Origin: an uncultured Candidatus Saccharibacteria bacterium
Lineage (GTDB): Bacteria; Patescibacteriota; Minisyncoccia; Phycocordibacterales; UBA2100
DNA: 64,000 bases
Assembly (NCBI GenBank): GCA_964399865.1
Contig: CAYNRJ010000001.1
Span: 475,984 to 539,983, forward strand
Direction of reading: 5' to 3'
Shown here piece after piece: positions 48,235-63,514 of this stretch. The stretch's first letter is position 1. Every line of letters starts with the position of its first letter. Position numbers and translations under genes: made by a program. The notes under the pieces were generated by a model. The model ran no database searches. It saw only the letters and a program-made list of their open reading frames with translations, and was not told where the DNA came from.

Positions 48235-49125
48235 ATGAAATTACTTCGTGCTCATTTCATTCTTTTTCTCATTGGAGTTACCGCACTACTCCTTGTGATC
48301 GGTGCGTTCGCACTAAAAGAATATTCGCCAGCTCAAAATACACCTAGGACAATCGCATGGGGAGGCCTTGGAGGCACCCCGTATTATCCACTTTCGGGCG
48401 AAAGAGCGATCGAAAGTAATCCTGCAGAGGAGAATATCTACAGCTCAATTCAAAGCGGGCCGCCGTTCTATTATTCAACGACTAACTCGGAAGCGGCGGA
48501 TGAGGAAGATGACACGTTCGACGTCGACGCGTTTCTTGCATATCTCAAGGGAGAAACGAGGACATCAGAAACTGCGGTCGAGGAGGAAAAACCGCTTTCG
48601 TTTCTTGAGAATCCATACTCATTTATCACAAATGGGGTCTCCTTCCCGAGTAGCTCCCTTACGAAAGAACGCACACCAATACAGCAGGCTTTATATGAGT
48701 ACGGAAATAAGGCTGGAAAGATCATTCAGACATTTGAAGACTCGAATCAAAACATGGCTGATGTAGTGCAGGCACAATCTGAAGATCCGGAAGACCCTCT
48801 TAAGGTCGCTGCCCTTATAAAACTAGCGGACTCTCTAGCAGATGTAGGGGTTTCACTAGAAGAACTCTCCTCTGTTCCAGCAGAAGCGGCCAATCAGAAC
48901 GCCAAACTTGCGACAAGCTATAAAGATATGGGTGCAAAACTTGCGCTCGTGCCTAACGCCATGACCGAAGACAGTAGGGTAGAGACAATGCTTACCTATA
49001 ATGCTGCCGCCGAATCGTTCGTCACAAATTACGTGGCTATCGTCACTCTTTTCTCGATCATGGAGGTCACATTTTCTCCTGATGAGCCGGGTAGTGTGTT
49101 CACTTTCACGATGACAGGGTTTTAA
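48235..49125 (+). CDS. Bitopic membrane protein (N-terminal TM plus ~260-aa extracytoplasmic domain); first gene of the T4SS-like operon, possibly VirB8-like
   Basis: 'MKLLRAHFILFLIGVTALLLVIGAFALK' TM anchor; the architecture (short N-terminus, 1 TM, ~230-260 aa domain) matches VirB8-type proteins, but no sequence signature was recognised. Confidence 0.5.
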   Translation: MKLLRAHFILFLIGVTALLLVIGAFALKEYSPAQNTPRTIAWGGLGGTPYYPLSGERAIESNPAEENIYSSIQSGPPFYYSTTNSEAADEEDDTFDVDAFLAYLKGETRTSETAVEEEKPLSFLENPYSFITNGVSFPSSSLTKERTPIQQALYEYGNKAGKIIQTFEDSNQNMADVVQAQSEDPEDPLKVAALIKLADSLADVGVSLEELSSVPAEAANQNAKLATSYKDMGAKLALVPNAMTEDSRVETMLTYNAAAESFVTNYVAIVTLFSIMEVTFSPDEPGSVFTFTMTGF

Positions 49126-49185
49126 GCCTCGACTGTCCACTCATTGTCCCCACGAAATCCCCAGGAAGCGGTTATACTTTATGCA

Positions 49186-50001
49186 ATGAAAGTAAGCGCG
49201 TTGAAGGGCGTGAGTTTTTCGCGTATGGCGATAACTGCAACACTGTCGATCGCAGCTGTTATTGGAGTTTCTGCGTGGCAACTAACAGCCCCTCTCCGGA
49301 GCGGGGGTGAAGAACTCGCTACCGGGAGTAACGATTCCACTATCACGATGGGTCGGACTGGAGATCCGGATCGTCAGTTTGATTGGCAGAAAAGTCTTGA
49401 GGGAATCTCGTCCGACGATCCAGATGGACTTTCAAATATCGGTGAAAATGTTGTTGAAACTTTGGTTGGTTCATACGTCGCGCTAAAAGACGCGGGAGTG
49501 TATACGCCAGAACAAGGGGCACAAATAGCTGGTGTAATTGCAACAGATCTCAAGGCCGATATTTCATTCCGTCTCTATGACACTGACGACATTAAGACCG
49601 ACACAAGCACTTCTTTCACTCGTTCGCTCGCATATCGAAGCGATATGCGCATCGCCCTCGAGCCTCTTTTGGAAAATCCTACGTATGAACTCGAGATACT
49701 CGGAGGATATATGGAGACTAAGGACCCAAAGTATCTCGCTGAACTGGAGAACATGGTCCGAAATTACAATGTTGCTATCGAGAATGCCGCACAAGTAGTC
49801 GTTCCGAAAGACGCGATCACATACCATATCAGTGTTCTGAACGCACTCTCTGAATTCGGCGCGACACTCGCACAAATGGTTAAGCACATTGACGATCCCT
49901 TCGCTTCTGCGGCGCTCCTTCGGACATTCAATGGCGCAGAGGCAAAAATGTTTACTTCGTTTGATGAGCTCGCAGACTATTTCCGTAAATCTACCTCATG
50001 A
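49186..50001 (+). CDS. Bitopic membrane protein, distant paralog-like of the upstream gene
   Basis: ORF 49144..50001 trimmed to MKVSALKG; TM 'MAITATLSIAAVIGVSAW'; same architecture as the 48235 gene. Confidence 0.5.
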   Translation: MKVSALKGVSFSRMAITATLSIAAVIGVSAWQLTAPLRSGGEELATGSNDSTITMGRTGDPDRQFDWQKSLEGISSDDPDGLSNIGENVVETLVGSYVALKDAGVYTPEQGAQIAGVIATDLKADISFRLYDTDDIKTDTSTSFTRSLAYRSDMRIALEPLLENPTYELEILGGYMETKDPKYLAELENMVRNYNVAIENAAQVVVPKDAITYHISVLNALSEFGATLAQMVKHIDDPFASAALLRTFNGAEAKMFTSFDELADYFRKSTS

Positions 50002-51593
50002 AAACAAGCTCCCTCATTTTCATACCGTTTAAGTTTGCTATCGCAACAATTACTCTGTTTCTCTTACTGACCTCTTTCGCTCAAGCTCAAACAGATACCT
50101 CAACCACCACTGCAGGATTATCGAGCTCAGGTATATTCGACTGCAACAGTAAAGCCGGAGCTGAGGCGATGAGCAGTGTCGGAACAAAAAGCACGATTCA
50201 AAGCTTATATGTCCCAGTTTCTGACGCAGGAGTAACCTTAAACACCGGATCTTTGGTCTACAAGGAATGTGTTCTCGACCCTATAAACACGCGCATGCGA
50301 GAGAACGCTGCTTTCTCGCACGTTCAACTCGGCATAAAGGCGTTTAACAAGGGGGCTGATGGTGAACCAATGTTTATAAAAGATTACATCGCGAAAGTTT
50401 CGGAGCGCAGCGACAAAACATTCCTACGTACATTTGAAGAAGGGGAGCTTGATACACTCAATCCAGCCTTTAAGGATGAAGTTAAGCGCGCGATCGCTGA
50501 AGATTATAAAACTCAGACCCGTGAGCCGAACAAGGTACTAGAATGTTCGTACAAAGGCGATCTCGCAAAAGTATACGCAGGACAACCGGAAGATATTTGG
50601 GGAGCTATCATGGCCATTGCAGAGCCAGCATGTAATCCGGTTGGAGCTTACAATCTCGCGCAAGAATATATTATAGACAATATCGCATCAGATAAGGAAG
50701 AGATGCTCTTCCGCCTTAATAACAGCAACGCCATCAAAGATGTCCAAACATACAACGAGGAGACCGGGCGATACGAGACCCTCACTCCAGGTATCATCGT
50801 TGCTGAAAATGTTCAGCAACTTATAACATCCGGCTTCCGGCAACTTGAGAACGCCGACGAGATAGGTCAAATGGTTGATGCGCTATATTCTGGCCTCTCC
50901 ACACAAGTAGTTTCCGATACTCGAGGACTCGCGGGAGTAACCGAAGGATTCGCTGGCCAGCCTTCTTATCTCGACCAAATTGGTGACACGCTCCGCAAAA
51001 ACCTTCGCGATGCAGCGGTTAATATAGCTTTGGGAATTCTAAAAGGCGCGAAGCAAACCGAGATTACCTATTTCAATGCATTGAATTCGATTGCACTTAC
51101 CCTAACGGCAACGATAGGGGATCTTCGCCAGGCAGAAGCACTATGTTGGGCAGAAGTAGTACCAAAAGCTCAAGTCTATGCAAGTGCAAATAATATTCAA
51201 ATAACCGTTGCTACTTCAACCCAATTTTCACAAGCGGTTATCAATGCACAGATAACATCTCTCGCTTCAACAACGATAACGGATATACGAAAGAGTGAGA
51301 CCGCTCTCTCCCTCATAGATCATTTAATAGAGGGCATTACGAACACGACTTCTCCGGATGCCCAGCGTGTAGCTCTTCAACAGTTAGATTCTCTCGTGGC
51401 ACAAGGAGCCCTACACGGAGAATACGATGCCCAGCAGGCAGTGAAGCGAAGAGATGAGATAAAGCCGGCAATGGAAAATCTCGTGGAAGATACGGTTGTA
51501 GCATGGGCTGATTCTGCTGACGTAAATGTCGGCTGGTGTAACGTCAATAATCCTGCGGTCGCCCAAAAATGGGTCGAGGAGTGGAGAAACTGA
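49998..51593 (+). CDS. Secreted protein (signal peptide), unknown function, T4SS-like operon
   Basis: 'MKTSSLIFIPFKFAIATITLFLLLTSFAQA' signal peptide; 531 aa; 4-nt overlap with the upstream gene. Confidence 0.55.
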   Translation: MKTSSLIFIPFKFAIATITLFLLLTSFAQAQTDTSTTTAGLSSSGIFDCNSKAGAEAMSSVGTKSTIQSLYVPVSDAGVTLNTGSLVYKECVLDPINTRMRENAAFSHVQLGIKAFNKGADGEPMFIKDYIAKVSERSDKTFLRTFEEGELDTLNPAFKDEVKRAIAEDYKTQTREPNKVLECSYKGDLAKVYAGQPEDIWGAIMAIAEPACNPVGAYNLAQEYIIDNIASDKEEMLFRLNNSNAIKDVQTYNEETGRYETLTPGIIVAENVQQLITSGFRQLENADEIGQMVDALYSGLSTQVVSDTRGLAGVTEGFAGQPSYLDQIGDTLRKNLRDAAVNIALGILKGAKQTEITYFNALNSIALTLTATIGDLRQAEALCWAEVVPKAQVYASANNIQITVATSTQFSQAVINAQITSLASTTITDIRKSETALSLIDHLIEGITNTTSPDAQRVALQQLDSLVAQGALHGEYDAQQAVKRRDEIKPAMENLVEDTVVAWADSADVNVGWCNVNNPAVAQKWVEEWRN

Positions 51594-51601
51594 TCTTGCA
51601 T

Positions 51602-54142
51602 ATGGAATACCTAAAACGAATGCTAGGACATCATAAAATAGGAATACTTGCGTCACTCTTCATCGCAATCGTGTTCTCCCCCTTTGTATTCAGTAATAAC
51701 AGCTTCGAGGTAAGCAGCGCGCTGGCAGCAACTCCTGAGGAAATCGCCGCAAGCGAAGGATTTCAAGCAATAATGGCAAACGTTCCGGCAGAAAATCTTG
51801 CCGCCTTCAACGGGTGCTTACAAAACCCTCCAAGTGGTCCATCGATCAATGAAAAACCTAAAGAGGGGCTCGCACTTTTTGCGAGCTATTGTTATGACCT
51901 CACTGTGGGCGAGCTACCTGACGAGTTAGTGCCGGGTTTTAAGCCACCCGAAGGCTATGTGGGCGGATGTGGCCTCAACTTTGGTTGTTATTGGAAAAAA
52001 CTCGTTGCAACCATTGCTTGGATACCGTCTGGACCAAGCGCATGGCTCCTTACTACTGTAGGGCAGTTCTTCAATTACCTCGTCGATCATACTATTATTG
52101 ACTTCAAGGGGACCTTAGAACAAATGGGGGAGAGTATTGATAATGCATGGACTGCATTCCGAGATATTGCGAACATTGTCATCATCGGAATGTTTGTATT
52201 CATTGCTCTCTCTCTAATCCTCGGGCTCAAGGAATACGGCGAGCGGAAAATGATAGCGCGCGTACTCATTGTTGCGGTGTTAATCAACTTCAGCTTACTT
52301 TTCACAAAGTTAATTATCGACGCTTCACACTTTACTGCGTATCAGTTCTACAATGCAGCTGGGAATATTGGTGGCCCCGTTGCCGACGAGGCCAGAGCTG
52401 CGGTTGACATTGAAGACGAAACAATTCCTGCGGCGGAGCCAGGTATCGCAGGTCAATTCTTAGCTGCTATGAGTATTACCCGGGTTGGGGAGATACATAA
52501 CATACTTTTTCAGATGCAGCAGAATGGTAATGGGATGTGGAACACAATACTCTTTGGCTTTTTTATGGGCGTTATGTTTCTCCTTGCTGCACTTGTGCTC
52601 TTATACGGCTGTTTCTTACTGATTGCACGGGGGCTACTCTTAGTATTTCTGATGATGACGGCACCTCTTGCTTTCGCGAGTTGGCTCATCCCCAAATTCG
52701 CAGGAGATGGTTGGAGCAAATGGTGGGATTCACTCTTACGCACTGCGATATTTGCACCTCTTCTGATGATTTTCTTGTGGGCTTCTCTCACTATAGCGAC
52801 TCAAATCAACGAGGCAGGCGAGGGACTGGGAGCGCTGATCGATCATCCTGAAAACGGCATCGGTATCGGGGCTCTTTTCAACTATGTCTTCGTGCTTGGG
52901 TTGCTTTTCATGTCCATAAAACTTGCAAGCAAATTCTCCGGCACAATTGCAGGATTCAGCGTCGCTGCAATGGCTACTGCCGCACCAATCACTCTCGGAT
53001 CGCGAGCGCTCGCAGCTCCACTCCGCGGTATCGGAGGTAAATATGCAACCAAATATCAAGAAAGTCGTATGGATCAAGCAAAGGCCGCTAGAAGGAACGT
53101 CGGGGTCGCTACTGGACTTAGAACGAACGCGTTGAAAGCTGCGCACGATTTCCGAGAAGCTGGTCTGCATGGCTTTGCAGATAGGGAACAGGCGGAGGCT
53201 AAGAAACAACAAAAGATTGCGGAGGAACAGAAGAAAATTGCGGCAATCAAAACAAAACGCGCGATGCGAGGTGCGACAGTTGCCGGGAACAAGATGAATC
53301 TTATGAATACTGAGACCGCTAAGAAGGTGCTCGGGGCAGTGGGGGTTACAGGGTTCATGGCTGGAGCGACGCCAAAGGAAGTACAGAGTTATCACGGAAA
53401 AATTGAAGAGAGAGCCAAGGCGGCGGAGAAAATTGCATCAAAACTTGCTCCAAAGCAAGAAGAAATCGATAAAGCGCGGGATCTTGCGGGAGACAGAATG
53501 AAAGAACAGCGCAAAATTGAAGAGGCACAACTGGAGGCAACAAGAAGGGTGGCTGAGGAGGAGGCCAATAACACAAAGGCTCTTGAGTATTTGCCTGAGC
53601 AATTGGAAACTGCCATTCGAGAATCTACACGAGTTAAGGCAGACGCTGCACGAAATAAGACTGCGATCGATGCCAGTAGGAGGGCAGGCACTATAAGCGC
53701 AGATGAACATCAACGACAATTAAGGATCGAGAATGATCGTGTTAAAGCCGCAGACGCCGCCGTAAAAACTGTTAAAGATCGCATTGACGTTATCGATCAG
53801 CCCGTGAAAGATATTGCAAAAAATATCGAAAAGTTCCGTGGAGAAACAAAAGGTGCAATCGAGAAAGCCAAACATGAAGGGGGTCAGGCTGTTGTAGAGA
53901 GCGGAGCCGGGGTAGCCGAAGTAATCGGTCGACGGTACGGAGGTACTCTGACTCGTATAGCTGGAGCCCTTACTGGAGCCAATGCTCACGTCGCTCACGA
54001 AACGAGAGAAATGTACCTTAAGAATCGCGGTGCGATGAATAAATTAAAGGATATTCTTAAGGGTGCAGGTGTTACGGAGGGAGAAGCTGCGCATGGAGGG
54101 GGCTCAGCACCTGCAGGGGGCGGGGGAGGCGATCATCACTAA
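51602..54142 (+). CDS. Polytopic membrane protein, VirB6/TrbL-like, with a long Lys/Ala/Glu-rich coiled-coil C-terminal tail
   Basis: ORF 51569..54142 (start 51569 or 51602); at least 8 hydrophobic helices in residues ~200-480; an extracytoplasmic Cys-containing loop (GGCGLNFGCYWKK); C-terminal ~350 aa of KAA/EEQ coiled-coil ending GGGSAPAGGGGGDHH. Sits two genes upstream of the VirB3-like + VirB4 pair, as in Gram-positive T4SS. Confidence 0.55.
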   Translation: MEYLKRMLGHHKIGILASLFIAIVFSPFVFSNNSFEVSSALAATPEEIAASEGFQAIMANVPAENLAAFNGCLQNPPSGPSINEKPKEGLALFASYCYDLTVGELPDELVPGFKPPEGYVGGCGLNFGCYWKKLVATIAWIPSGPSAWLLTTVGQFFNYLVDHTIIDFKGTLEQMGESIDNAWTAFRDIANIVIIGMFVFIALSLILGLKEYGERKMIARVLIVAVLINFSLLFTKLIIDASHFTAYQFYNAAGNIGGPVADEARAAVDIEDETIPAAEPGIAGQFLAAMSITRVGEIHNILFQMQQNGNGMWNTILFGFFMGVMFLLAALVLLYGCFLLIARGLLLVFLMMTAPLAFASWLIPKFAGDGWSKWWDSLLRTAIFAPLLMIFLWASLTIATQINEAGEGLGALIDHPENGIGIGALFNYVFVLGLLFMSIKLASKFSGTIAGFSVAAMATAAPITLGSRALAAPLRGIGGKYATKYQESRMDQAKAARRNVGVATGLRTNALKAAHDFREAGLHGFADREQAEAKKQQKIAEEQKKIAAIKTKRAMRGATVAGNKMNLMNTETAKKVLGAVGVTGFMAGATPKEVQSYHGKIEERAKAAEKIASKLAPKQEEIDKARDLAGDRMKEQRKIEEAQLEATRRVAEEEANNTKALEYLPEQLETAIRESTRVKADAARNKTAIDASRRAGTISADEHQRQLRIENDRVKAADAAVKTVKDRIDVIDQPVKDIAKNIEKFRGETKGAIEKAKHEGGQAVVESGAGVAEVIGRRYGGTLTRIAGALTGANAHVAHETREMYLKNRGAMNKLKDILKGAGVTEGEAAHGGGSAPAGGGGGDHH

Positions 54143-54147
54143 TAGGT

Positions 54148-54723
54148 ATGGATACAAAAATGACTCAAGAAGAATTAAATCAGAAATTGCGCGAGCGATT
54201 TCAAGAGATTCCTAAAGTACTCCAAGAGGCTATTACCTCTGCAAACGTAGAGAAACAGTTACGAGAACTCGCCACAAAACATAAGTTGCATGTGGACATG
54301 TGGCAATTACTCGAGAATGAGGTCATCGTTACACTCCTCGGTCTTCAGCCAGCAGATGACCTCGCCGCCAACCTCCAAAACGACCTCGGCCTACCCAAAG
54401 AAGCATCGATTGCGCTCGCAAGAGATGTATCTACGATAGTTTTCGCGCCAGTAAGACAAGAGCTCGAGCGGACACTGGAACATCCTGAGGCAAAGTCCGA
54501 AGAGGAGAGTGACGTTGATACCGTAAGGACACAAATACTTGAGCAAAAGCCTACACCAACTAGTACTTCACTGCCTCCGTTGGTAAAACCAGCGACCCCA
54601 CCCCCACAACCACCCACTCAAAAGATTGAAAGAGGTCCTGCGTCGGGCGCATATGTGCCCGGAGAAGTATCGAGCGCGCGAAAATCGATCGTGGATGATC
54701 CGTACAGAGAAGCGCCGCAATGA
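54148..54723 (+). CDS. Hypothetical protein with a Pro-rich C-terminal region, T4SS-like operon
   Basis: 191 aa; no TM; 'PPLVKPATPPPQPPTQ'. Confidence 0.45.
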   Translation: MDTKMTQEELNQKLRERFQEIPKVLQEAITSANVEKQLRELATKHKLHVDMWQLLENEVIVTLLGLQPADDLAANLQNDLGLPKEASIALARDVSTIVFAPVRQELERTLEHPEAKSEEESDVDTVRTQILEQKPTPTSTSLPPLVKPATPPPQPPTQKIERGPASGAYVPGEVSSARKSIVDDPYREAPQ

Positions 54724-54852
54724 AAAACTAATTTAATTCACTCTGGCGTCAATACGCTAAGAGCTTGCGTGTTATAATTCTGCCACGGGAGACTGGAAAC
54801 TAGCGCTCGTTTTCTCCTCGAAGCTAGCTGCTAGTCCCTGGCAGCTATTTAT

Positions 54853-55353
54853 ATGCAATTTCAGGTACCACAATTCATCGAGGTGGAGGATAAAATCTTC
54901 GGTCCTCTCACATTCAAGCAATTTGTGTATGTCGCAGGAGGAGCCGGGGCAGCCTATCTTTTTTGGCGAACCCTCCCATTCTTTTTTTCCGTCCCCCTCA
55001 TCATGGGGATTGGAGCCCTTGCCGCAAGCTTAGCCTTCTTTAAATACAACGGGCGCCCTTTTATTCTCGCGATGGAGCATGGCTTCTACTATCTTGTACG
55101 AACAAAACTATATTTGTGGAACAACGCGGCAAAAACTGCAAAACCTAGGAAATTAGCGACGAAAGCGACACTACCTACTAGTCAGGTATATGTGCCTACA
55201 CTTTCACAAAGCAAATTACACGAACTGGCATGGAGTTTGGACATTAAAGAACGTATTGCAGGAGGCACCGTTTCAAGCGAAGAGCGAGAAGCGGCCGCCC
55301 CGACAGATAGCATCGTCGCTCCAATACGCACCGCCCGCGATGCGAGAGTATAA
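54853..55353 (+). CDS. Small two-TM protein, VirB3/PrgI-like (directly precedes the VirB4 homolog)
   Basis: 166 aa; 'FKQFVYVAGGAGAAYLFWRTLPFFFSVPLIMGIGALAASLAFF' hairpin of two helices; position and topology as for VirB3-family proteins. Confidence 0.5.
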   Translation: MQFQVPQFIEVEDKIFGPLTFKQFVYVAGGAGAAYLFWRTLPFFFSVPLIMGIGALAASLAFFKYNGRPFILAMEHGFYYLVRTKLYLWNNAAKTAKPRKLATKATLPTSQVYVPTLSQSKLHELAWSLDIKERIAGGTVSSEEREAAAPTDSIVAPIRTARDARV

Positions 55354-55358
55354 AATCT

Positions 55359-56045
55359 ATGCCACCAGGACTTGAAAACTTACGCGACAGAAAGAAATCC
55401 ACTCAAGATTTCGTGCCCGTGCGTGAAGTGCGGGATGGAGTCGTCGTACTTAAGGATGGAGGATTACGCGCAATTCTTCTCGCATCTTCTCTTAACTTCG
55501 CACTGAAATCAGAAGACGAACAGACTGCGTTCATCACGCAATTCCAAAGCCTTCTAAACTCACTGGATTTTTCTGTGCAGATTTTCATAGAGTCTCGCAT
55601 GCTCGATATAAGACCTTACATTGCAACTCTCGAGGAAGCATATAAAAAGCAGCTCGACGATCTGATGCGAATCCAGATCCGTGAATATATAGAATTCATC
55701 AAGAGCTTTACTGAAGCTGCAAATGTCATGACAAAGAACTTCTTCGTCGTCGTGCCGTATTCCGGCGGTCCACAGATCGGCAAGAGTGGGGGAGGGCCCT
55801 CACTCCCATGGAGCAAAAAAAAGAACAGCACTGAGGAGGCGAACAAGAGCTTCGAAGAGCAGGTGACTCAGCTCGAACAAAGAGTATCTGTCGTGCAGCA
55901 AGGTCTGATCCGCACAGGTGTCCGCACTGTTCAGTTAGGAACCGAGGAGGCAATCGAGCTTCTCTACAAAATGTTCAACCCTGGCGAAGAAGGGAAACCG
56001 ATGTCACTTAACAATACCGAAGAGGCGCCCGCGACCAGCCAATAA
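55359..56045 (+). CDS. VirB4/TraC/TrsE-family protein, N-terminal portion (ends at an in-frame TAA)
   Basis: 'QDFVPVREVRDGVVVLKDGGLRAILLASSLNFALKSEDEQ' matches the conserved N-terminal region of VirB4/TrsE-type ATPases; the ORF stops at TAA 56043-56045 and the next ORF starts 3 nt later in the same frame. Confidence 0.65.
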   Translation: MPPGLENLRDRKKSTQDFVPVREVRDGVVVLKDGGLRAILLASSLNFALKSEDEQTAFITQFQSLLNSLDFSVQIFIESRMLDIRPYIATLEEAYKKQLDDLMRIQIREYIEFIKSFTEAANVMTKNFFVVVPYSGGPQIGKSGGGPSLPWSKKKNSTEEANKSFEEQVTQLEQRVSVVQQGLIRTGVRTVQLGTEEAIELLYKMFNPGEEGKPMSLNNTEEAPATSQ

Positions 56046-56048
56046 TGT

Positions 56049-57998
56049 ATGGGATTTAAAGACTTACTGCCATTTGGAAAGAAACCAACGCCGCCCGAGG
56101 CGCGAGTTCTTCCTGTGTTACCTGAGGAAATATACGAAACGGGAGTTCTTGACCTCCAGGATGTCATCGCACCGCACGCACTCCGTGTTAATTCACGTGA
56201 GCTCGACCTCGGCGAGAAGATCGCGCGAACTTTTTTCGTGATCTCTTACCCCCGCTTCCTCACGACAGGATGGTTCGCCCCGATCATCAACATGGACAAG
56301 GTCTTGGATATTGCCATCTACGTCCACCCGATGGACACAAATGAGATGCTTCGAAAGTTCCAGAAAAAAGTGGCTGAGGTGCAGAGTCAGATATCGACAC
56401 GTGAAGAGAAGGGGATGGTGCGAGACCCTATGCTCGATACTGCATACAGCGACTTGGAAACTTTGCGTGACTCTCTGCAGCAGGCACAGGAGCGTATTTT
56501 CGAAGTGGGATTGTACTTAACAATTTACGGTAATACCCGCGAGGAAATCGATAAGGTGGAATCTGAGGTGCGTTCAATTCTCGAATCGCGTCTCGTATAC
56601 ATTCGTCCTGCACTATTCCAACAGGAGAGTGGGTTCAGAAGTGTCTTGCCGCTCGCTACCGATGAGCTTGATGTCCATACAAAACTCAACTCCGCTCCTC
56701 TCTCTTCGATCTTTCCATTCATATCATTCGACCTTACGAGCGATCGCGGCATCCTCTATGGCGTCAACCGCCACAATTCTTCTCTCATTCTCTTCGATCG
56801 TTTCTCGATGGAAAACTACAACTCGGTCACCTTCGCAAAATCCGGTGCCGGCAAGTCGTACATGACCAAGCTCGAGATATTGCGATCTCTCATGTTCGAA
56901 ACCGAGGTTATCGTAATCGACCCAGAACGCGAGTACGAATATCTCGCAGAAACAGTGGGCGGGCGATACTTCAACATCTCACTCTCCTCTGAGCACCACA
57001 TAAATCCATTCGATCTTCCTGTCCCTCGCGAGGATGAAAACCCATCAGATATTTTGCGCAGTAACATCATTACTCTCGTAGGACTTTTCCGCATTATGCT
57101 CGGGGGCCTTACGCCTGAAGAAGATGCGATCATTGATAAAGCCATAACCGAAACCTACGCATTGAAAGACATCACACCGGACGCGAACTTTGCCGCAATA
57201 GAGCCACCGCTTCTCTCTGACTTTGAACTGGTACTTTCCGGACTAGAAGGATCGGAGTCGCTCGTCGCTCGTCTTTCTAAATATACGAAAGGAACTTGGT
57301 CGGGATTCATGAATAGACCAACGAACGTCGACATGAATAAGAGATTGATTGTTTTCTCGGTCCGCGACATGGAGGATGACTTGAAACCAATTGCGATGTA
57401 CATCATCACACATCACATTTGGAATGCGGTTAGGAAAGAATTGCGTAAACGTCTTCTCGTCATCGATGAGGCGTGGTGGATGATGCGTTCAGAAGATACC
57501 GCATCATTTCTCTATTCCGTTGCTAAACGAGGACGTAAATACTATCTCGGAATTTCAACCATTACCCAAGACGTATCCGACTTCCTCAATTCGCCGTATG
57601 GAGTTCCGATGATAACTAACTCTTCTATCCAAATACTTCTACGCCAATCTCCGACATCCGTTGACCTCGTGCAATCAACATTTAAATTATCCGATGAGGA
57701 AAAATACCTCCTGCTTGAATCCGATGTGGGGGAGGGAATATTCTTTGCGGGCCTTAAACACGTAGCGGTAAAAGTTATCGCATCATACACAGAAGATCAA
57801 ATCATCACGTCCGATCCATCTCAGGTTCTCGCGATCAGGAAAGCTAAGAGGGATCTTGAAGATGCAAATTCAGGTGAAGCACCCCCGCTTCCAGAGGTCA
57901 AAAAAATCCCTGAAATGCCGGATCGCCCAGTTGCGCCCCAAACCCCAGCCGTTCCACCCGCACCAAACATCGCGCCACCCAAAGACATGGCAATATGA
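56049..57998 (+). CDS. VirB4/TraC/TrsE-family T4SS ATPase, central and ATPase portion
   Basis: 649 aa; Walker A 'TFAKSGAGKSYMTKLEI', Walker B 'RLLVIDEAWWMM', 'GISTITQDVSDF' helicase-like motif; in frame with and contiguous to the 55359 ORF, the two together being about 877 aa (typical VirB4 length). Confidence 0.75.
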   Translation: MGFKDLLPFGKKPTPPEARVLPVLPEEIYETGVLDLQDVIAPHALRVNSRELDLGEKIARTFFVISYPRFLTTGWFAPIINMDKVLDIAIYVHPMDTNEMLRKFQKKVAEVQSQISTREEKGMVRDPMLDTAYSDLETLRDSLQQAQERIFEVGLYLTIYGNTREEIDKVESEVRSILESRLVYIRPALFQQESGFRSVLPLATDELDVHTKLNSAPLSSIFPFISFDLTSDRGILYGVNRHNSSLILFDRFSMENYNSVTFAKSGAGKSYMTKLEILRSLMFETEVIVIDPEREYEYLAETVGGRYFNISLSSEHHINPFDLPVPREDENPSDILRSNIITLVGLFRIMLGGLTPEEDAIIDKAITETYALKDITPDANFAAIEPPLLSDFELVLSGLEGSESLVARLSKYTKGTWSGFMNRPTNVDMNKRLIVFSVRDMEDDLKPIAMYIITHHIWNAVRKELRKRLLVIDEAWWMMRSEDTASFLYSVAKRGRKYYLGISTITQDVSDFLNSPYGVPMITNSSIQILLRQSPTSVDLVQSTFKLSDEEKYLLLESDVGEGIFFAGLKHVAVKVIASYTEDQIITSDPSQVLAIRKAKRDLEDANSGEAPPLPEVKKIPEMPDRPVAPQTPAVPPAPNIAPPKDMAI

Positions 57999-59059
57999 AA
58001 AAGGCAGCAGCGCCATTCCTATTTCTTGCGCTTATTTTTTTCTCACTGCTAGTGCCCAGCACTCCTGCCCACGCTCAATTAGTGTTCCCCGGGACAACAC
58101 CAGATCTCGCTCTTGAAGCAGTGCCCGAAAACCCTCGACCGAATTCAAACATTACTCTTCGGATAAGAAGTGTGCTGCTCGACCTCACCCAAAGCGAGAT
58201 CACGTGGTACGTGAATGGCACTGTTACAAGTACTGGTATTGGGATTACTGAAACTAGCGTAGCAACGGGAGCGCTGGGAACAGAGACCCGGGTGCGTGTT
58301 GAAGCAATTGGAGAAGCAGGGAGCGCTTTTGCCGTTGGGGTATTTCGTCCTACTGACATAGATCTTCTGTGGGAGGCTGATTCGTATGTGCCCCCATTTT
58401 ATCGAGGTCGCGCGCTTCCATCTGCGGGAAGTACCGTTCGCTTATTTGCGGTACCTCGATTTACGAGAGTCGGATCTACTTCCTTTTTACCATCGAGTGA
58501 ACTCATGTATACCTGGAAAAGGAACGATCAAACTATTCCAAAGGCATCTGGCTTCGGAAAAGACACGGTCCAAATTGAAACGTCCATTATATCGAGCGGC
58601 GACGTTATATCCGTAGAAATAGCAACCGCAGACGGGATACTGGAAGGATCTGCTTCGGTACGGTTACCTTCGGTAGAACCTTCTCTCGTGTTATACGAAA
58701 ATCATCCAGTCTTCGGGGTTCTGTATCACCGTGGATTGCAGAGCCCTGCCTCAGTCACTGAGTCCGAAACAACATTTATAGCTGTTCCGTATTTCGCGCC
58801 TACTCGAAATCCTGATAACGGGTCACTCATTTATAAATGGCGGGTTGGTAACTCATCTATACCAAGCAGTTTTACGAAACCTAGCGCAATCACAATCAAC
58901 GCAGAGGGAACAAATGGTGTAGCTCTCATACAGCTCGCCGTTACACACGCGTCGAATTTCTTACTGAACATACAGAACGCATGGGCCGTGACTCTCGCTG
59001 GAACAGACACATCAACCACTGTGAGTCCTTTCACGGACCCTTTCACAAGTGGTGAATAA
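57995..59059 (+). CDS. Secreted beta-rich protein (signal peptide, Ig-like repeats), T4SS-like operon
   Basis: 'MKKAAAPFLFLALIFFSLLVPSTPAHA' signal peptide; 4-nt overlap with the VirB4 stop. Confidence 0.55.
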   Translation: MKKAAAPFLFLALIFFSLLVPSTPAHAQLVFPGTTPDLALEAVPENPRPNSNITLRIRSVLLDLTQSEITWYVNGTVTSTGIGITETSVATGALGTETRVRVEAIGEAGSAFAVGVFRPTDIDLLWEADSYVPPFYRGRALPSAGSTVRLFAVPRFTRVGSTSFLPSSELMYTWKRNDQTIPKASGFGKDTVQIETSIISSGDVISVEIATADGILEGSASVRLPSVEPSLVLYENHPVFGVLYHRGLQSPASVTESETTFIAVPYFAPTRNPDNGSLIYKWRVGNSSIPSSFTKPSAITINAEGTNGVALIQLAVTHASNFLLNIQNAWAVTLAGTDTSTTVSPFTDPFTSGE

Positions 59060-60317
59060 TACTATGCGTATACGTATACCGACATCACTCCTCCGTTACA
59101 CTCTGATACTTCTTGTTGTTTTACTATTTGGCATCCTCTTGTGGTGGTATTTCTTCCTCGGAGCCAAACAGGATTCACTGGAAGCGACTGATGACGGAAG
59201 GGGAGCAGGAGTAGAGGCGCCTTCTTTCGGAAATGCGATCGGGAGCACGTACGGCAATATTGTTTCAAGCATAGGAGCGGCCATATCAAACACGAGCGAG
59301 GAAGAGCCTGCCGCTCCACAAACAACCCCGCCTTTATGGCATGCGGCGAAAAGCCCTGTGGCAGGCGCAAGCTTTATTTTAAATGGAACTACGACCGCAA
59401 TCCGCTTCGTAGAACGAGGTACGGGATACGTTCTGGAGGCAAATCCTGAAACAGGGGAGCTTACTCGCATCACGAACACCCTCATACCACGCGTATACGA
59501 AGCTTACGTAGGAGCTAATGGAAGTCTTATTTTGCGAAGCCTGGATGAGGCTGACAATATCGTAACGAGTGCCGGACAAATAGTTGCAACAACTTCTGAA
59601 GATGTCGCACCAAAGCCCCTAGCTTTGCGTCAATTACCCTTAAACATTCGTACGATCGCTCTGCACCCCGAAGGAGAAGAGGTTTTTTATATTGAACCCG
59701 GATACTCTGTGGAAGACGAGTATTCCATTGTTCGGGCCGCATGGAACGGCACCGCGGTTAAACGTATCGGTACGGTGGGTATTTCGGGTTGGCAAGCAAA
59801 GTGGCTCTCCGACGATCGAATAATATTGACACAGAATGCAGGCGGCACATCGAATTATGCATATGAATTAGCGGCAAACGGATCACTCGTGCGCCTCGCA
59901 AATCCCGCAGGCGGACTAGTAGTACTACCTCGTCCAAACTCTAAAGCGTTACTCTATGGCAGTGCCTCGAACGGCTTCCTCCTTTCAGTTCTCACAGATG
60001 CAAACGCGGATCCCAAGACACTTTCTATCCGCACCACCGCTGATAAGTGCGTATGGTCGCCTAGCGCTGTTCTAATTGTGTACTGCGCAGTCCCACAAAC
60101 TCTACCAGGAGCAGATTTCCTAACCGCTAGAGCGCAGGGGACAGAACATACTGCCGACACCTGGTGGAAAATCGATATACGAACAGGTAGAGCAGAAATT
60201 TTACCCGTCGAAACTATGCCTCAAGTGGATGTCGAGAATCCTATAATGGATCCGTCTGGGAAATACCTACTATTTACGAACAGTCGCGATAAATCGCTTT
60301 GGTTGGTACGTATCTAA
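59049..60317 (+). CDS. Membrane-anchored protein with a beta-propeller-like (TolB-like) extracytoplasmic domain
   Basis: TM 'LLRYTLILLVVLLFGILLWWYFF'; repeated beta-strand blades ('GTGYVLEANPETGELTRITN', 'GKYLLFTNSRDKSLWLVRI'); the start may be at 59064. Confidence 0.5.
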   Translation: MVNNTMRIRIPTSLLRYTLILLVVLLFGILLWWYFFLGAKQDSLEATDDGRGAGVEAPSFGNAIGSTYGNIVSSIGAAISNTSEEEPAAPQTTPPLWHAAKSPVAGASFILNGTTTAIRFVERGTGYVLEANPETGELTRITNTLIPRVYEAYVGANGSLILRSLDEADNIVTSAGQIVATTSEDVAPKPLALRQLPLNIRTIALHPEGEEVFYIEPGYSVEDEYSIVRAAWNGTAVKRIGTVGISGWQAKWLSDDRIILTQNAGGTSNYAYELAANGSLVRLANPAGGLVVLPRPNSKALLYGSASNGFLLSVLTDANADPKTLSIRTTADKCVWSPSAVLIVYCAVPQTLPGADFLTARAQGTEHTADTWWKIDIRTGRAEILPVETMPQVDVENPIMDPSGKYLLFTNSRDKSLWLVRI

Positions 60318-63300
60318 AGTATATGAGCACGACACTTACTCTGAAGAAAATATTGGTCGGCGGCGCTCTTGTACTACCGTGTCTCATTAGCACGTTCACC
60401 CTCTCCCTTCCTTCTGTCGAGGCAGCGGACATATCTCCTTCGTGTGCTGATCGAGCAGACGGATTCATCCCGCTTGCGTGTGTCGATAATACTGTACTTG
60501 GAGATTTATACGCCACGGGTGATGTTGCGCCCGATGCGGAATTTAGTGGAAATCTTACCGACTACGTTGGAAGAATATTCTTCTTCGCTATCACAATCGG
60601 GGGAGTGCTTGCAGTCCTTCGTGTTGCCTGGGCTGGGTTCTTATACATAACAAGTGATCTGTGGCACACAAAGGAACGCGCGAAAGAGATGCTACGGGAA
60701 ACCGTACTCGGACTCTGTCTTTTGCTTTCAGTCTGGCTTATCTTGAACCAGATCAACCCGCGGATTCTAAGTCTCGACTTTAATTTCACACCGCCTGCGG
60801 AAGATGTCGGGGCAGATGATCCTGATTCACCTGGACCTGCCACTCCACAGCCAACCCAGGCACAGATGCGAGTGATGCAGACCTTGGGGACCTACCGATC
60901 TTCGTGGAACCTCTCACCACTACCAGCTCAGAGTTGCGCCTCTCCAACTTCACTATCGATGGGTAATTACCTTTGTTTCGAAAGCTGGCATCACTGCGAA
61001 GCGGTTGCTGAGGTAGAAGGCGCTAGCTGCACATTTACGCCGACCGCCGAGATCCCAAGCCCATTTTTTGATCCTACCCTCGGACCGAACGGGGGATACT
61101 GGCGCCCAACTATAGTCATTTGGAACGGTGACAGATACCATTCTGAAGAGGATTGTCTTGCGGCTAGACCCCAATACAACGAATGCGAATCTGTCGCATA
61201 TGATGCTCCCATAGGCACATACTACCCGAACGCCGAAACCCCACCTGGCTGGTGTTATTTAGATACATGGTTACCAGATGGCAAATATTGTGACCCTTCG
61301 TGGACTGAAGATGCGTGCCGCGCAGCAGGGAATGCTTACGGCTCAAACATCGGAAGCCGGTGCGATGAGTCTGGCACCGAAAATTCTTATGTTAGTACAT
61401 ACACCGAGATACAAAATGATTCACTAACTTCGGGCGCGCCGCGATATTGCATTCTAGAGTCCGGTGCATACCGCTGCTTCCTTTCCTCAGAGAGCTGTAA
61501 CGAGGCAGGCGATGACTGCTATAGAATCGGGAATTGGGAAGTGAAGCTTAATGGAGTTACGGCCATTCTCGATACGAGAGGTACTGTGAACCGATTTCAG
61601 ACCGCAGCGCTTAGTTGGGAGCCGTCCGTTGGGGCGGATCCGTCTGTAATTGAAGACGCTCGTGAATCTTTTAGAAATTACTGCGAGACTAGGGCAAGCG
61701 CTACGTACGTTGCGGCTGAGGGAAATGAAACCCGTGACTTCTGCCCAGTCTCCATTCCTGGTCCGAATACCGAAAATTTCTACACCTCATGGAATGCGGT
61801 TCCCGAAAACAAGTGGTGCTACAACCCTGTCGGCACTGAATTTTATTGCCCCGGTAACGAAAATGCGTGTATAGCTGCGGTCGCAGAAATTGGATATACA
61901 GACGTTTCCTGTGAATACAAACCTGCGAGATCAACAATAACTCAACCTGGCTTTGTATGCGGACAAGGCGGGCCAAACCAATTCTATTGCGGATTTAAAA
62001 ACGTCGCAGCATGCGCCGCATACGACACTCCACCTCTTTCTAATTGCGCACTAATACCAGAAATTCCTGACCCTACCTACACATACGCGCCGGCAAATCC
62101 AAATCAAACTGATCCGCCACAGACAAATACCCCAGAAGAAGTGGGGGCCGACCCAGCAGTCACCTATGACAGTAACGTTATACATGACACCCCGATTCTC
62201 GGATACACATGCTACCTACTATCAACCTCAAGATACCAATGTTATCGAGGAGGACCGATTGCTAACCCACCACCGCACTCACAGGCATTCAGTCCGGGAC
62301 CGCTGACTGGGTATTACTGCTTCTCGATGAACAACACATCGTCTCCGTATTACAGTTGTTACACGGGAGCGATAACGTGCGCTCAAGCTGCACAAGCAGT
62401 TGGTAAAACATGCGCCCTCGCATCTCTCCTGCGAGAACCAGGTCCGACTTTACAATGGAGTCAATCGCCGCGCTTAGAACAATATTGTTTCGCAGCAAAT
62501 GAGGGCGGATATGGATGTGTCGCAAATGAAGCGGCATGTAACACTTTCGCTGTCAGGGAAGGGAAAACCTGTACCCTTGCGACATTAAGAAATCAAAATG
62601 GTAGTACGGTGAGCACGCCCGCATCACAACCCGGAGTAGGATTACCTCCTCCAACGAGAACGGGGGCTACGTCCGTAATTCCATCGGCGGAAACGCCAAC
62701 CGAAACACTTGATGAATTACCTCCAAAAGACAACGTGTCGTTGTGGGGTCGCGCAATACAACGTCTTTTTGAGCTATGGGAATTACTACGACATCCTTCC
62801 GAATGGACGGCTGAATTCCGACAAATGGTGGAAGGTTTCCTAGGTCGGGAAGAGGAAACAACTATTGAAGCTGAGGTTGTAAATCCTCCAGCGGAGCAAC
62901 CTGTTGCTCAAATATCCACGCCGCCTAACACTCCTGTTGCTCAAACATATCCCTATTTCCAGCTCCCGGCAGGACAGTGGTGTCATAGGGTAGAGGGAAG
63001 TAATCCTCGCGCATATCAATGTTCCGGGGTGCGCGCCGCCTGTGAGGAAGGCGGCCAAACCTGTTTCCGAGCGGATGCGGCATCAACAATCCGTTCCGCA
63101 TCAGGAGGATCCGTGAGCTCTGCGATTGCGGCGGGCGGAGGGTATTGCACCGTACTTACTAGAGGAGTAAGCAACGCGATGTACTGTGGTTTCGCATCTG
63201 CCGAATCCTGTACTGAGTTTGTTCTAAATTCGAGCAGCCAAACTCAGACGACGACATCTTGTGACACTTATTGTCCAGCAGAGCTTCAAGCAGGGGCCGC

Positions 63301-63514
63301 ATCTCAAGGGGCAACGTATCAATGCAATATTACAGTCGGATCCTGGTGTTATGAAATATCGAAACCGACAAGCGCAACAACATTTGGCAGACGATATCAT
63401 TGCGCCGTAAATGAAAATATCTGTAACACTGCTCGCTCAGCGAACAATCCCGCGCCGATCAATAACAGCACCTGTCTTCAGTTTGGACCTTACGGACCTA
63501 CCCTTACGTCTTGA
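60299..63514 (+). CDS. Giant cell-surface protein: N-terminal VirB2/TrbC-like pilin module (signal peptide plus 2 TM helices) fused to a ~900-aa ectodomain made of about 10 cysteine-rich repeat modules
   Basis: Signal peptide '...LPCLISTFTLSLPSVEA'; 'YVGRIFFFAITIGGVLAVLRVAWAGFLYITS...RAKEMLRETVLGLCLLLSVWLILNQI' matches TrbC/VirB2 hairpin topology; repeats of the form [YWF]-x-C-x(7-11)-C-x(4-6)-C-x(7-14)-C (e.g. YLCFESWHHCEAVAEVEGASC, QYCFAANEGGYGCVANEAACNTFAVREGKTC). An alternative start lies at 60323. Confidence 0.6.
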   Translation: MVGTYLKYMSTTLTLKKILVGGALVLPCLISTFTLSLPSVEAADISPSCADRADGFIPLACVDNTVLGDLYATGDVAPDAEFSGNLTDYVGRIFFFAITIGGVLAVLRVAWAGFLYITSDLWHTKERAKEMLRETVLGLCLLLSVWLILNQINPRILSLDFNFTPPAEDVGADDPDSPGPATPQPTQAQMRVMQTLGTYRSSWNLSPLPAQSCASPTSLSMGNYLCFESWHHCEAVAEVEGASCTFTPTAEIPSPFFDPTLGPNGGYWRPTIVIWNGDRYHSEEDCLAARPQYNECESVAYDAPIGTYYPNAETPPGWCYLDTWLPDGKYCDPSWTEDACRAAGNAYGSNIGSRCDESGTENSYVSTYTEIQNDSLTSGAPRYCILESGAYRCFLSSESCNEAGDDCYRIGNWEVKLNGVTAILDTRGTVNRFQTAALSWEPSVGADPSVIEDARESFRNYCETRASATYVAAEGNETRDFCPVSIPGPNTENFYTSWNAVPENKWCYNPVGTEFYCPGNENACIAAVAEIGYTDVSCEYKPARSTITQPGFVCGQGGPNQFYCGFKNVAACAAYDTPPLSNCALIPEIPDPTYTYAPANPNQTDPPQTNTPEEVGADPAVTYDSNVIHDTPILGYTCYLLSTSRYQCYRGGPIANPPPHSQAFSPGPLTGYYCFSMNNTSSPYYSCYTGAITCAQAAQAVGKTCALASLLREPGPTLQWSQSPRLEQYCFAANEGGYGCVANEAACNTFAVREGKTCTLATLRNQNGSTVSTPASQPGVGLPPPTRTGATSVIPSAETPTETLDELPPKDNVSLWGRAIQRLFELWELLRHPSEWTAEFRQMVEGFLGREEETTIEAEVVNPPAEQPVAQISTPPNTPVAQTYPYFQLPAGQWCHRVEGSNPRAYQCSGVRAACEEGGQTCFRADAASTIRSASGGSVSSAIAAGGGYCTVLTRGVSNAMYCGFASAESCTEFVLNSSSQTQTTTSCDTYCPAELQAGAASQGATYQCNITVGSWCYEISKPTSATTFGRRYHCAVNENICNTARSANNPAPINNSTCLQFGPYGPTLTS

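Follow-up and report, generated by a model that had tools for sequence, protein, structure and literature searches.

Two adjacent genes very probably encode a split VirB4 motor in the chromosomal T4SS cluster of a Kaiserbacteria-like patescibacterium

The two neighboring open reading frames found between positions 55359 and 57998 of the window, i.e. the whole stretch of 64,000 nucleotides analyzed here, are very probably two separately translated genes, which together represent the split VirB4 motor of a chromosomal T4SS in a Kaiserbacteria-like bacterium within the Patescibacteria (CPR). The arrangement is ordinary: a VirB4 encoded by two genes is the normal state, is conserved and has been published before. 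This form occurs throughout the ultra-small Patescibacteria as well as in staphylococcal plasmids, and none of it is new. A first-pass annotation of the same DNA had identified the two halves and had named a two-subunit split as one option, both of which stand; its framing of the locus as an interrupted gene, explained by a pseudogene, an error or readthrough, does not.

The two genes and their junction

The features discussed here are compiled in Table 1. Read directly from the sequence, the junction is ...ACC AGC CAA TAA TGT ATG GGA TTT..., so that a spacer of three nucleotides separates the stop codon of the TrsD-like gene from the ATG with which the ATPase gene opens. According to the ORF list both genes begin with ATG, and as both start coordinates are divisible by three they share a common frame. 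Translation of 55359-57998 meets exactly one internal stop, and the two products add up to 877 aa, a normal length for VirB4. Sequence, ORF list and translation thus confirm what had been noted before, namely two same-frame ORFs separated by TAA-TGT, the second opening with ATG, with no further stops and a summed length typical of VirB4. No Shine-Dalgarno-like purine run is present 5-12 nt upstream of the ATPase ATG, and neither Rfam nor a promoter/terminator scan returned anything at the TAA-TGT-ATG junction.

Table 1. Coordinates of the two VirB4 genes, their junction and neighboring features in the window
Feature	Position	Strand	Details	Basis
857-aa polytopic membrane protein	51569..54142	+	~7 TM-like segments	
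10-bp hairpin (TAGCTGCTAG...CTGGCAGCTA)	54825..54847	+	ends 5 nt before PrgI start codon	
PrgI-family (VirB3-like) small membrane protein gene	54853..55353	+		Pfam PrgI
TrsD-like gene	55359..56045	+	228 aa	NCBIfam, PF26593, AF2 fold, hhalign
Junction TAA-TGT-ATG	56043..56051	+	TAA 56043-56045, TGT 56046-56048, ATG 56049-56051	
VirB4-family T4SS ATPase gene, TrsE/TraE-type	56049..57998	+	649 aa	NCBIfam, Pfam, PDB
1071-aa protein with N-terminal T4SS pilin (VirB2-like) domain	60299..63514	+		Pfam T4SS_pilin

Judged by its sequence matches, the product of the downstream gene is a VirB4-family T4SS ATPase. It scores above the cut-off of the VirB4 model NF045971 (conju_CD1110; 358.6 bits versus 325, model positions 185-732 of 752), matches P-loop_TraG, AAA_10 and DUF87 in Pfam, and carries a Walker A motif (AKSGAGKS) at residue 263 and a Walker B motif (LLVIDEAW) at residue 469. 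Residues 232-588 align to the C-terminal domain of T. pseudethanolicus VirB4 (PDB ID: 4AG5; E = 4e-41), and a match to TrwK is likewise found in the PDB (E = 2e-8, TrwK 300-735). The C-terminal tail is proline-rich. The ORF is without the first ~180 residues of a single-chain VirB4.

The TrsD-like protein encoded upstream stands alone and is homologous to the N-terminal ~180-200 residues of a single-chain VirB4. Its NCBIfam matches fall on the N-terminal positions of VirB4_plasma (99-233 of 894, E = 1e-10), of the CD1110 model (2-117 of 752, E = 7e-6) and of TIGR00929 (4-182 of 792, E = 3e-4). Together with the matches of the ATPase they bear out the earlier assignment of the first ORF to the VirB4 N-terminal region and of the second to the rest. 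The TrsD/TraD model NF041427 gives 32.6 bits (E = 6.4e-8), below its curated cut-off of 200, and the protein is a distant TrsD/TraD homologue outside the narrow staphylococcal subfamily. Pfam PF26593 ("TraC-like") is the precomputed annotation of a protein identical to the product; our local Pfam scan did not return this family and gave only a sub-threshold FEZ match. The protein contains no TM-like segment and is soluble.

Searched against PDB sequences, the TrsD-like protein gave no meaningful match, whether queried by itself or as a profile of 97 sequences, and its link to TrwK in the PDB came only from fold comparison. An AF2 model based on an alignment of diverse representatives reached a pLDDT of 88.9; a model whose shallow alignment comprised homologues of 73-89% identity (pLDDT 50) was discarded. 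With the former, TrwK/VirB4 chains take up all of the top 14 PDB matches in Foldseek (E = 2e-4 to 1e-2, probability 1.00, TMq 0.40-0.54; chain-level matches, residue ranges not given), followed by a sharp drop to a probability of 0.25 for the next match. The first-pass annotation had placed the break between the N-terminal and the ATPase regions. In VirB4 numbering it actually falls near 180-185, still within the classical N-terminal domain, and the downstream ORF consequently keeps ~230 residues ahead of the crystallized ATPase domain.

Conservation of the split and competing explanations

The orthologous loci were compared in 80 related species genomes (Kaiserbacteria/Paceibacteria). In 79 of these 80 species-level genomes the N-domain gene is directly followed by the ATPase gene; in the genome without an adjacent ATPase gene (L066) the scaffold contains N runs, and the N-domain gene ends at the homologous stop. 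Checking whether orthologous loci are split or fused had been suggested in the first-pass annotation, and the split state found here speaks against its picture of an interrupted gene. In all relatives the stop of the N-domain gene is located at the homologous gene end. A complete ATPase ORF is present in 74 loci (median 649 aa), both ORFs are full-length in the species compared, and the start methionine of the ATPase is kept across species along with the motif that follows (M-A/G-L-x-D-L-L-P-F-G-K-K). The 120 best close homologues of the TrsD-like protein all measure 212-240 aa. Among more distant cluster representatives (35-68% identity), 149 of 150 are short stand-alone proteins, and C-terminal extensions of 300-443 aa occur in about 30 of the 150. 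The single fused relative, P0246, has 797 aa and runs collinear to both ORFs. With dN at 0.12-0.18 in the N-domain gene and 0.07-0.10 in the ATPase gene and with synonymous sites saturated, both genes are under strong purifying selection; owing to the saturation, NG86 dN/dS is undefined for most pairs.

The junction itself varies. The second gene lies in the +1 frame relative to the first at 34 of the 80 orthologous junctions, in the +2 frame at 26 and in frame at 20, the latter being below the one-third expectation. The in-frame relation in the window is thus no more than chance. Spacers range from -65 to 476 nt, and TAA, TAG and TGA are all used as stop. Half of the junctions (40 of 80) have spacers of at most 10 nt, 16 of them of 1 nt, and the 3-nt in-frame form seen in the window recurs at six of the 80. 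Many spacers hold several stops, and in some species an unrelated 23S_rRNA_IVP gene is inserted between the two VirB4 genes.

A recent nonsense mutation in a single-chain virB4, leaving a gene that decays to a pseudogene, had been offered as one explanation. The lone in-frame TAA between otherwise intact halves and the existence of the fused relative P0246 would fit such an event. However, 79 of the 80 species genomes share this gene boundary, as do 149 of the 150 distant representatives, the ATPase start methionine and its motif are kept, the low dN at saturated dS (0.07-0.18 over both genes) gives no sign of relaxed selection, and pSK41 shows the same split. A mutation of this kind is thus extremely improbable, and the pseudogene reading was rejected on the ortholog comparison, the disruption being present in relatives. 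A false stop created by sequencing or assembly, likewise raised before, has nothing in its favor beyond the general possibility that exists for any metagenome-derived sequence. It is practically excluded by the identical 31-nt junction in five independent assemblies from five different sequencing runs and by the homologous position of the stop in all relatives.

Programmed readthrough of the stop, which would yield a fused 878-aa VirB4 beside the short N-terminal protein, is suggested by the geometry of the window, where the in-frame ORFs are only a TAA and one codon apart, and by the six junctions of the same 3-nt in-frame form. Against it, the frame is shifted at 60 of the 80 orthologous junctions, the 20 in-frame ones stay below the one-third expectation, many spacers hold several stops, some contain a whole gene, and the 3-nt spacer shows no evident stimulatory structure. 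The stop, moreover, is a TAA followed by T; in E. coli the UAAU context ranks with the signals that terminate most efficiently and is not leaky. Since neither frame nor spacing is conserved among orthologs, the readthrough proposed in the first-pass annotation is unsupported, and we regard it as very improbable. The TrsD-like protein could also have drifted to an independent role, e.g. as a regulator or adaptor, and no longer be part of VirB4. In Gracilibacteria the TrsD homologues lack an association with virB4 (PMC12102498), and the C-terminal extensions in ~30 of 150 representatives point in the same direction. In this lineage, however, adjacency to virB4 is near-universal, the AF2 model retains a VirB4-like fold in Foldseek, and P0246 is collinear with the two ORFs, which makes an independent role very unlikely. 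The functional two-subunit split is thus the option favored by the 79 of 80 genomes, the 149 of 150 representatives and the two-gene form of pSK41.

The T4SS cluster and its known counterparts

The ATPase is encoded with other T4SS components, i.e. PrgI/VirB3-like and T4SS_pilin genes, on the same strand and in the same gene string. The PrgI-family protein (Pfam PrgI, E = 5.8e-11, 43.2 bits at a cut-off of 27) has one TM-like segment, and its gene ends 5 nt ahead of the TrsD-like gene. The 1071-aa protein, the gene of which closes the string, matches T4SS_pilin with 31.5 bits (cut-off 26.6; E = 1.9e-7). The gene of the 857-aa membrane protein belongs to the same tightly packed string; its product gave no match in Pfam and NCBIfam and is, by inference, a candidate VirB6-like channel component. 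NCBIfam returned no names for the nine other ORFs of the cluster. The other junctions of the string are similarly tight (spacers of -25 to +5 nt), and its only long spacer, of 129 nt, contains the 10-bp hairpin listed in Table 1, which resembles spacer hairpins of orthologous operons. The cluster is chromosomal, with housekeeping genes around it, and a scan of the larger ORFs beyond the first ~33 kb of the window revealed no relaxase.

Recently, TrsD homologues beside virB4 were reported to be the commonest T4SS component in Patescibacteria, with 2,272 homologues, 1,664 of which adjoin virB4 (PMC12102498; Microb Genom 2025). The same study describes the T4SS as essential for the epibiotic lifestyle in Patescibacteria, cites an essential TrsD homologue in S. 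epibionticum ML1, the only strain with reported essentiality, and found no VirB3-VirB4 fusions in Patescibacteria. For the TrsD-VirB4 homology it cites Guglielmini et al. 2014 (PMC4027160), in the main text of which the name "TrsD" is absent. The window agrees with the systems described there in lineage, in chromosomal location and in the two-gene arrangement, and shares with them a cluster of PrgI/VirB3, TrsD-like, VirB4 and VirB2-like pilin genes with KsgA nearby. There is no substantive difference, and the window represents one more instance. The junction architecture (frames, spacers) is not described in PMC12102498 and is added by the present comparison.

The staphylococcal conjugative plasmids pGO1 and pSK41 (MPF_FATA class) encode TrsD/TraD and TrsE/TraE. 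In pSK41 the VirB3-like gene is followed by TrsD (227 aa), a 14-nt spacer and TraE (672 aa, a DUF87 ATPase), compared to 228 and 649 aa with a 3-nt spacer in the same order in the window. The ATPase aligns over residues 6-576 to TraE 2-617 (24% identity), so both ATPase genes start at a homologous residue, and hhalign of a 97-sequence family alignment against pSK41 TrsD gave a moderate match (E = 1.6e-5, probability 79%, 175 columns). In contrast to the chromosomal cluster of the window, the system of pSK41 serves conjugation, resides on a plasmid and includes a relaxase and a coupling protein. The split is maintained by selection and is very probably ancient. Given the moderate hhalign match and the 32.6 bits (cut-off 200), an origin shared with the split in the monoderm conjugation systems of the pGO1/pSK41 lineage is likely rather than proven, and is favored over two independent splits at the same place. 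Single-chain VirB4 proteins, i.e. TrwK of R388 (PDB IDs: 7O41, 7O43, 8RTB) and the CD1110 family of Firmicutes ICEs, are collinear with the two ORFs, and the model of the TrsD-like protein matches TrwK with E = 2e-4, probability 1.0 and TM 0.5; they form one chain, compared to two polypeptides in the window. The VirB3-VirB4 fusions of some conjugative systems have the same module order (VirB3, VirB4 N-terminal region, VirB4 ATPase) and mark the opposite extreme, as in the window all three modules reside on separate genes.

Possible function and significance of the split

The TrsD-like protein and the ATPase would reassemble non-covalently into a VirB4-like unit. Hereby, the TrsD-like subunit may act in trans as the VirB4 N-terminus beside PrgI/VirB3 and anchor the hexameric ATPase there and at the membrane channel. 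The 3-nt TAA-TGT-ATG junction, devoid of a Shine-Dalgarno sequence, would couple translation of the two genes by termination-reinitiation, and such coupling may result in near-equimolar output of both proteins. Spacers of 70-476 nt in some relatives imply that tight coupling is not universal.

That the split is a regulatory device, and not merely neutral gene fission, appears doubtful. A free N-terminal module could be made at another ratio or time than the ATPase and pre-dock on PrgI/VirB3, and species might tune the ratio via the junction, either by direct coupling over 1-5 nt as in the window or by long hairpins as in relatives. Many relatives indeed have species-specific long hairpins that begin at the stop codon and end 8-18 nt short of the ATG. 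The repeats that form them are, however, present in further spacers of these operons too, and this speaks for an intergenic element of a generic kind.

For annotation, a short "VirB4 N-terminal" ORF next to a "truncated" VirB4 is the native state in Patescibacteria and in pGO1/pSK41-type systems, and such ORF pairs should not be flagged as pseudogene, frameshift or recoding event. A VirB4 N-terminal module acting in trans would be a handy natural system for studying how VirB3 and the membrane channel are connected to the ATPase through the VirB4 N-terminus.

Two adjacent genes at the window junction

The N-ORF and the C-ORF share one reading frame and meet at the sequence ...CAA TAA TGT ATG GGA..., with the TAA at 56043-56045 and the ATG starting at 56049. 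Translation of 55359-57998 encounters this one internal stop alone, so that sequence, ORF list and translation all bear out the two same-frame ORFs with a single stop described in the first-pass annotation. Its assignment of the halves to the VirB4 N-terminal and ATPase regions likewise holds. The C-ORF scores above the curated threshold for CD1110-family VirB4 (positions 185-732 of 752 covered), contains the Pfam domains P-loop_TraG, AAA_10 and DUF87 with Walker A at residue 263 and Walker B at residue 469, and is similar to the VirB4 ATPase domain structure 4AG5 (E 4e-41), while the N-ORF matches N-terminal positions of VirB4-family models as well as the TrsD/TraD family model. The break itself, previously placed between the N-terminal and ATPase regions, can be refined to about VirB4 position 180-185, within the classical N-terminal half; the C-ORF retains about 230 residues upstream of the crystallised ATPase domain.

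Features of the type IV secretion system (T4SS) gene string in the window
Feature	Position	Strand	Remarks
Hairpin TAGCTGCTAG-TCC-CTGGCAGCTA	54825-54847	+	10 bp; in 129-nt spacer 54724-54852; ends 5 nt before PrgI start codon
PrgI/VirB3-like gene		same as ORF pair	directly upstream of the N-ORF/C-ORF pair
N-ORF (TrsD-like)	55359-56045	+	228 aa; from ORF list
C-ORF (ATPase)	56049-57998	+	649 aa; from ORF list; frame common to N-ORF
857-aa protein		same strand	in gene string; about 7 TM-like segments
1071-aa protein		same strand	in gene string; T4SS pilin domain

Sequence-only PDB searches with the N-ORF found nothing, and no TM-like segment was found in its product. A first structural model from a shallow alignment was poor (pLDDT 50); the model built from a 97-sequence alignment of diverse representatives reached pLDDT 88.9 and pTM 0.79. 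In a comparison of this model with solved structures, the 14 best-scoring entries are without exception R388 T4SS TrwK/VirB4 chains (E 2e-4 to 1e-2, probability 1.00, TM about 0.5), below which only noise follows (probability <=0.25). On this model, the N-ORF carries the VirB4 N-terminal fold.

Both genes belong to a same-strand string with spacers of -25, -19, -11, -4, -4, +3, +5 and +5 nt, in which most starts lack a Shine-Dalgarno-like sequence; the tight TrsD-like/ATPase junction has none either. Neither Pfam nor NCBIfam recognises most T4SS-string genes in 48235-63514 (296, 285, 531, 857, 191, 354 and 422 aa), and apart from the 857-aa protein their products mostly show one N-terminal TM-like segment. 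The neighbours are housekeeping genes (PNPase, ComM-like, PurA, M23/LysM peptidase, UvrD-type helicase, KsgA, tRNAs), and the string is therefore a chromosomal T4SS cluster.

Conservation of the split in relatives

The 120 best N-ORF homologues (73-100% identity) are all stand-alone proteins of 212-240 aa, and close homologues occur in Candidatus Kaiserbacteria, Paceibacteria and Parcubacteria. We fetched 80 orthologous loci from 80 species-representative genomes and used the conserved ATPase start (M-A/G-L-x-D-L-L-P-F-G-K-K) as the fixed reference for each junction. The ATPase gene directly follows the N-domain gene in 79 of the 80; in the remaining locus, L066, a scaffold with N runs, the N-domain gene likewise stops at the homologous position. 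Of the 80 junctions, 34 stand in a +1 and 26 in a +2 frame relation and 20 are in frame, with no in-frame enrichment; spacer lengths lie between -65 and 476 nt (<=10 nt in 40), and the stop is TAA in 40, TAG in 31 and TGA in 9. The in-frame TAA-NNN-ATG of the window belongs to a wide set of junction forms that can stand in for one another. At the short extreme, the N-domain ORF of locus L048 overlaps the ATPase gene by 65 nt in another frame (about 4640-4712; TGA stop at 4709).

Several species harbour within the spacer a small gene that is unrelated and belongs to the 23S_rRNA_IVP four-helix-bundle family; such an insertion requires the two halves to be independent genes. The HMM-tested spacer gene, in L008, matches Pfam 23S_rRNA_IVP with E 1.9e-14, and the L005 and L012 spacers encode clearly similar peptides. 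Gene-bearing spacers measure 411 nt in L005, L006 and L008 and 476 nt in L012, L015 and L021.

Searched exhaustively with the N-ORF, a set of 1.84 billion cluster representatives yielded 2,328 matches, of which the best 150 (35-68% identity) include 149 short proteins of 146-443 aa. The sole fused full-length form among them, P0246 (797 aa), is collinear with the window ORFs (N-ORF 10-209 to its 3-210, 40% identity; C-ORF 32-596 to its 226-791, 56%) and may stem from genuine re-fusion, from a lineage that never split or from a sequencing artefact. About 30 of these 150 are 300-443 aa long (P0157, P0161, P0166, P0171, P0179, P0202, P0213 and P0226 among them), with the homologous domain N-terminal and an extra C-terminal extension, for which BLASTP found no similarity to the window ATPase.

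The ATPase ORFs of L006 (5084-8653) and L070 (4690-8535), of at least 1190 and of 1282 aa, contain an insertion of about 570 aa straight after the Walker A GAGK (GKS). Its first residue is Ser and its last two are HN, after which comes another Ser; it matches Pfam Intein_splicing and LAGLIDADG_3 and is a LAGLIDADG intein with homing endonuclease in the VirB4 P-loop.

Spacer hairpins

Among the 26 loci whose trsD-like gene and virB4 lie 50-100 nt apart, about 16 have a spacer RNA that folds as a single long hairpin (dG -19 to -46 kcal/mol; z -4 to -8 versus shuffles). These include L064, L067, L014, L051, L080, L039, L032, L007, L065 and L073, mostly at locus positions of about 4640-4760, earlier in L007. 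The 5' arm starts from the stop codon or within 3 nt of it, 8-18 nt separate the end of the 3' arm from the ATPase ATG, and the arms consist of species-specific tandem units of about 8 nt, often with TAG. The last 10 nt or so before the ATG carry a pyrimidine-rich ACTAWTCCT-like motif; the hairpin spacers examined lack a Shine-Dalgarno sequence before the ATG and a U-tract after the hairpin. In 7 of 16 loci these repeat units are also present in further spacers of the operon, so the hairpin is probably a generic intergenic element. The window hairpin upstream of PrgI is similar in style. Its 129-nt spacer also contains TGTTATAAT, an extended -10-like sequence identified by eye at about 54768-54776, and may be the promoter/leader of a PrgI-trsD-virB4 transcription unit.

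A two-gene VirB4

For the interrupted gene, the first-pass annotation had offered a nonsense mutation, an assembly error, a two-subunit split or readthrough. An assembly artefact is excluded, since the exact 31-nt junction is found in five assemblies from five different sequencing runs. Both genes are under strong constraint (N gene, dN 0.12-0.18; ATPase gene, dN 0.07-0.10; synonymous sites saturated). The stop between the halves is no accident, and on this five lines of evidence concur: the close homologues, the species genomes, the variable junctions, the inserted gene and the distant relatives. TAA followed by T is a strong terminator in bacterial termination contexts. Readthrough, which would give a fused VirB4 from the shared frame of the window ORFs, is unlikely, as the orthologs do not keep this frame and the window stop is TAA followed by T. 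What stands is the two-subunit split: the orthologs encode two separate proteins, an outcome that the first-pass annotation itself had named as refuting the unusual readings, and the halves are two conserved genes in the order VirB3-like, TrsD-like, ATPase.

The staphylococcal conjugative plasmid pSK41 provides a precedent. There a CagC-family pilin comes first, the VirB3 position is taken by a small hypothetical protein, and trsD (227 aa) follows, separated by 14 nt from a 672-aa DUF87 ATPase. The TrsD-like family profile aligns with pSK41 TrsD (hhalign E 1.6e-5, probability 79%) and residues 6-576 of the window ATPase with residues 2-617 of the pSK41 ATPase (E 3e-36). Since the ATPases align from residue 6 and residue 2, respectively, the two systems have their gene boundary at homologous positions, the window gene beginning where TrsE/TraE begins. 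The Patescibacteria T4SS has been described as homologous to monoderm conjugation machinery, with a TrsD homologue listed as essential in S. epibionticum ML1, with KsgA and genes for replication in the vicinity of virB4, and with no relaxases (PMC12102498, Microb Genom 2025). The two-gene VirB4 is hence already described in the literature and nothing new.

In conclusion, the window pair is an ordinary, conserved, already described two-gene VirB4. Termination of the TrsD-like ORF and translation of the ATPase would be coupled, in the manner of the other junctions of the string. By analogy, the two proteins would bind non-covalently and rebuild a VirB4-like protomer. Because VirB4 touches VirB3 in the R388 inner-membrane complex, as summarised in PMC12102498, the TrsD-like subunit may serve as the link between the ATPase hexamer on one side and PrgI/VirB3 and the membrane channel on the other.
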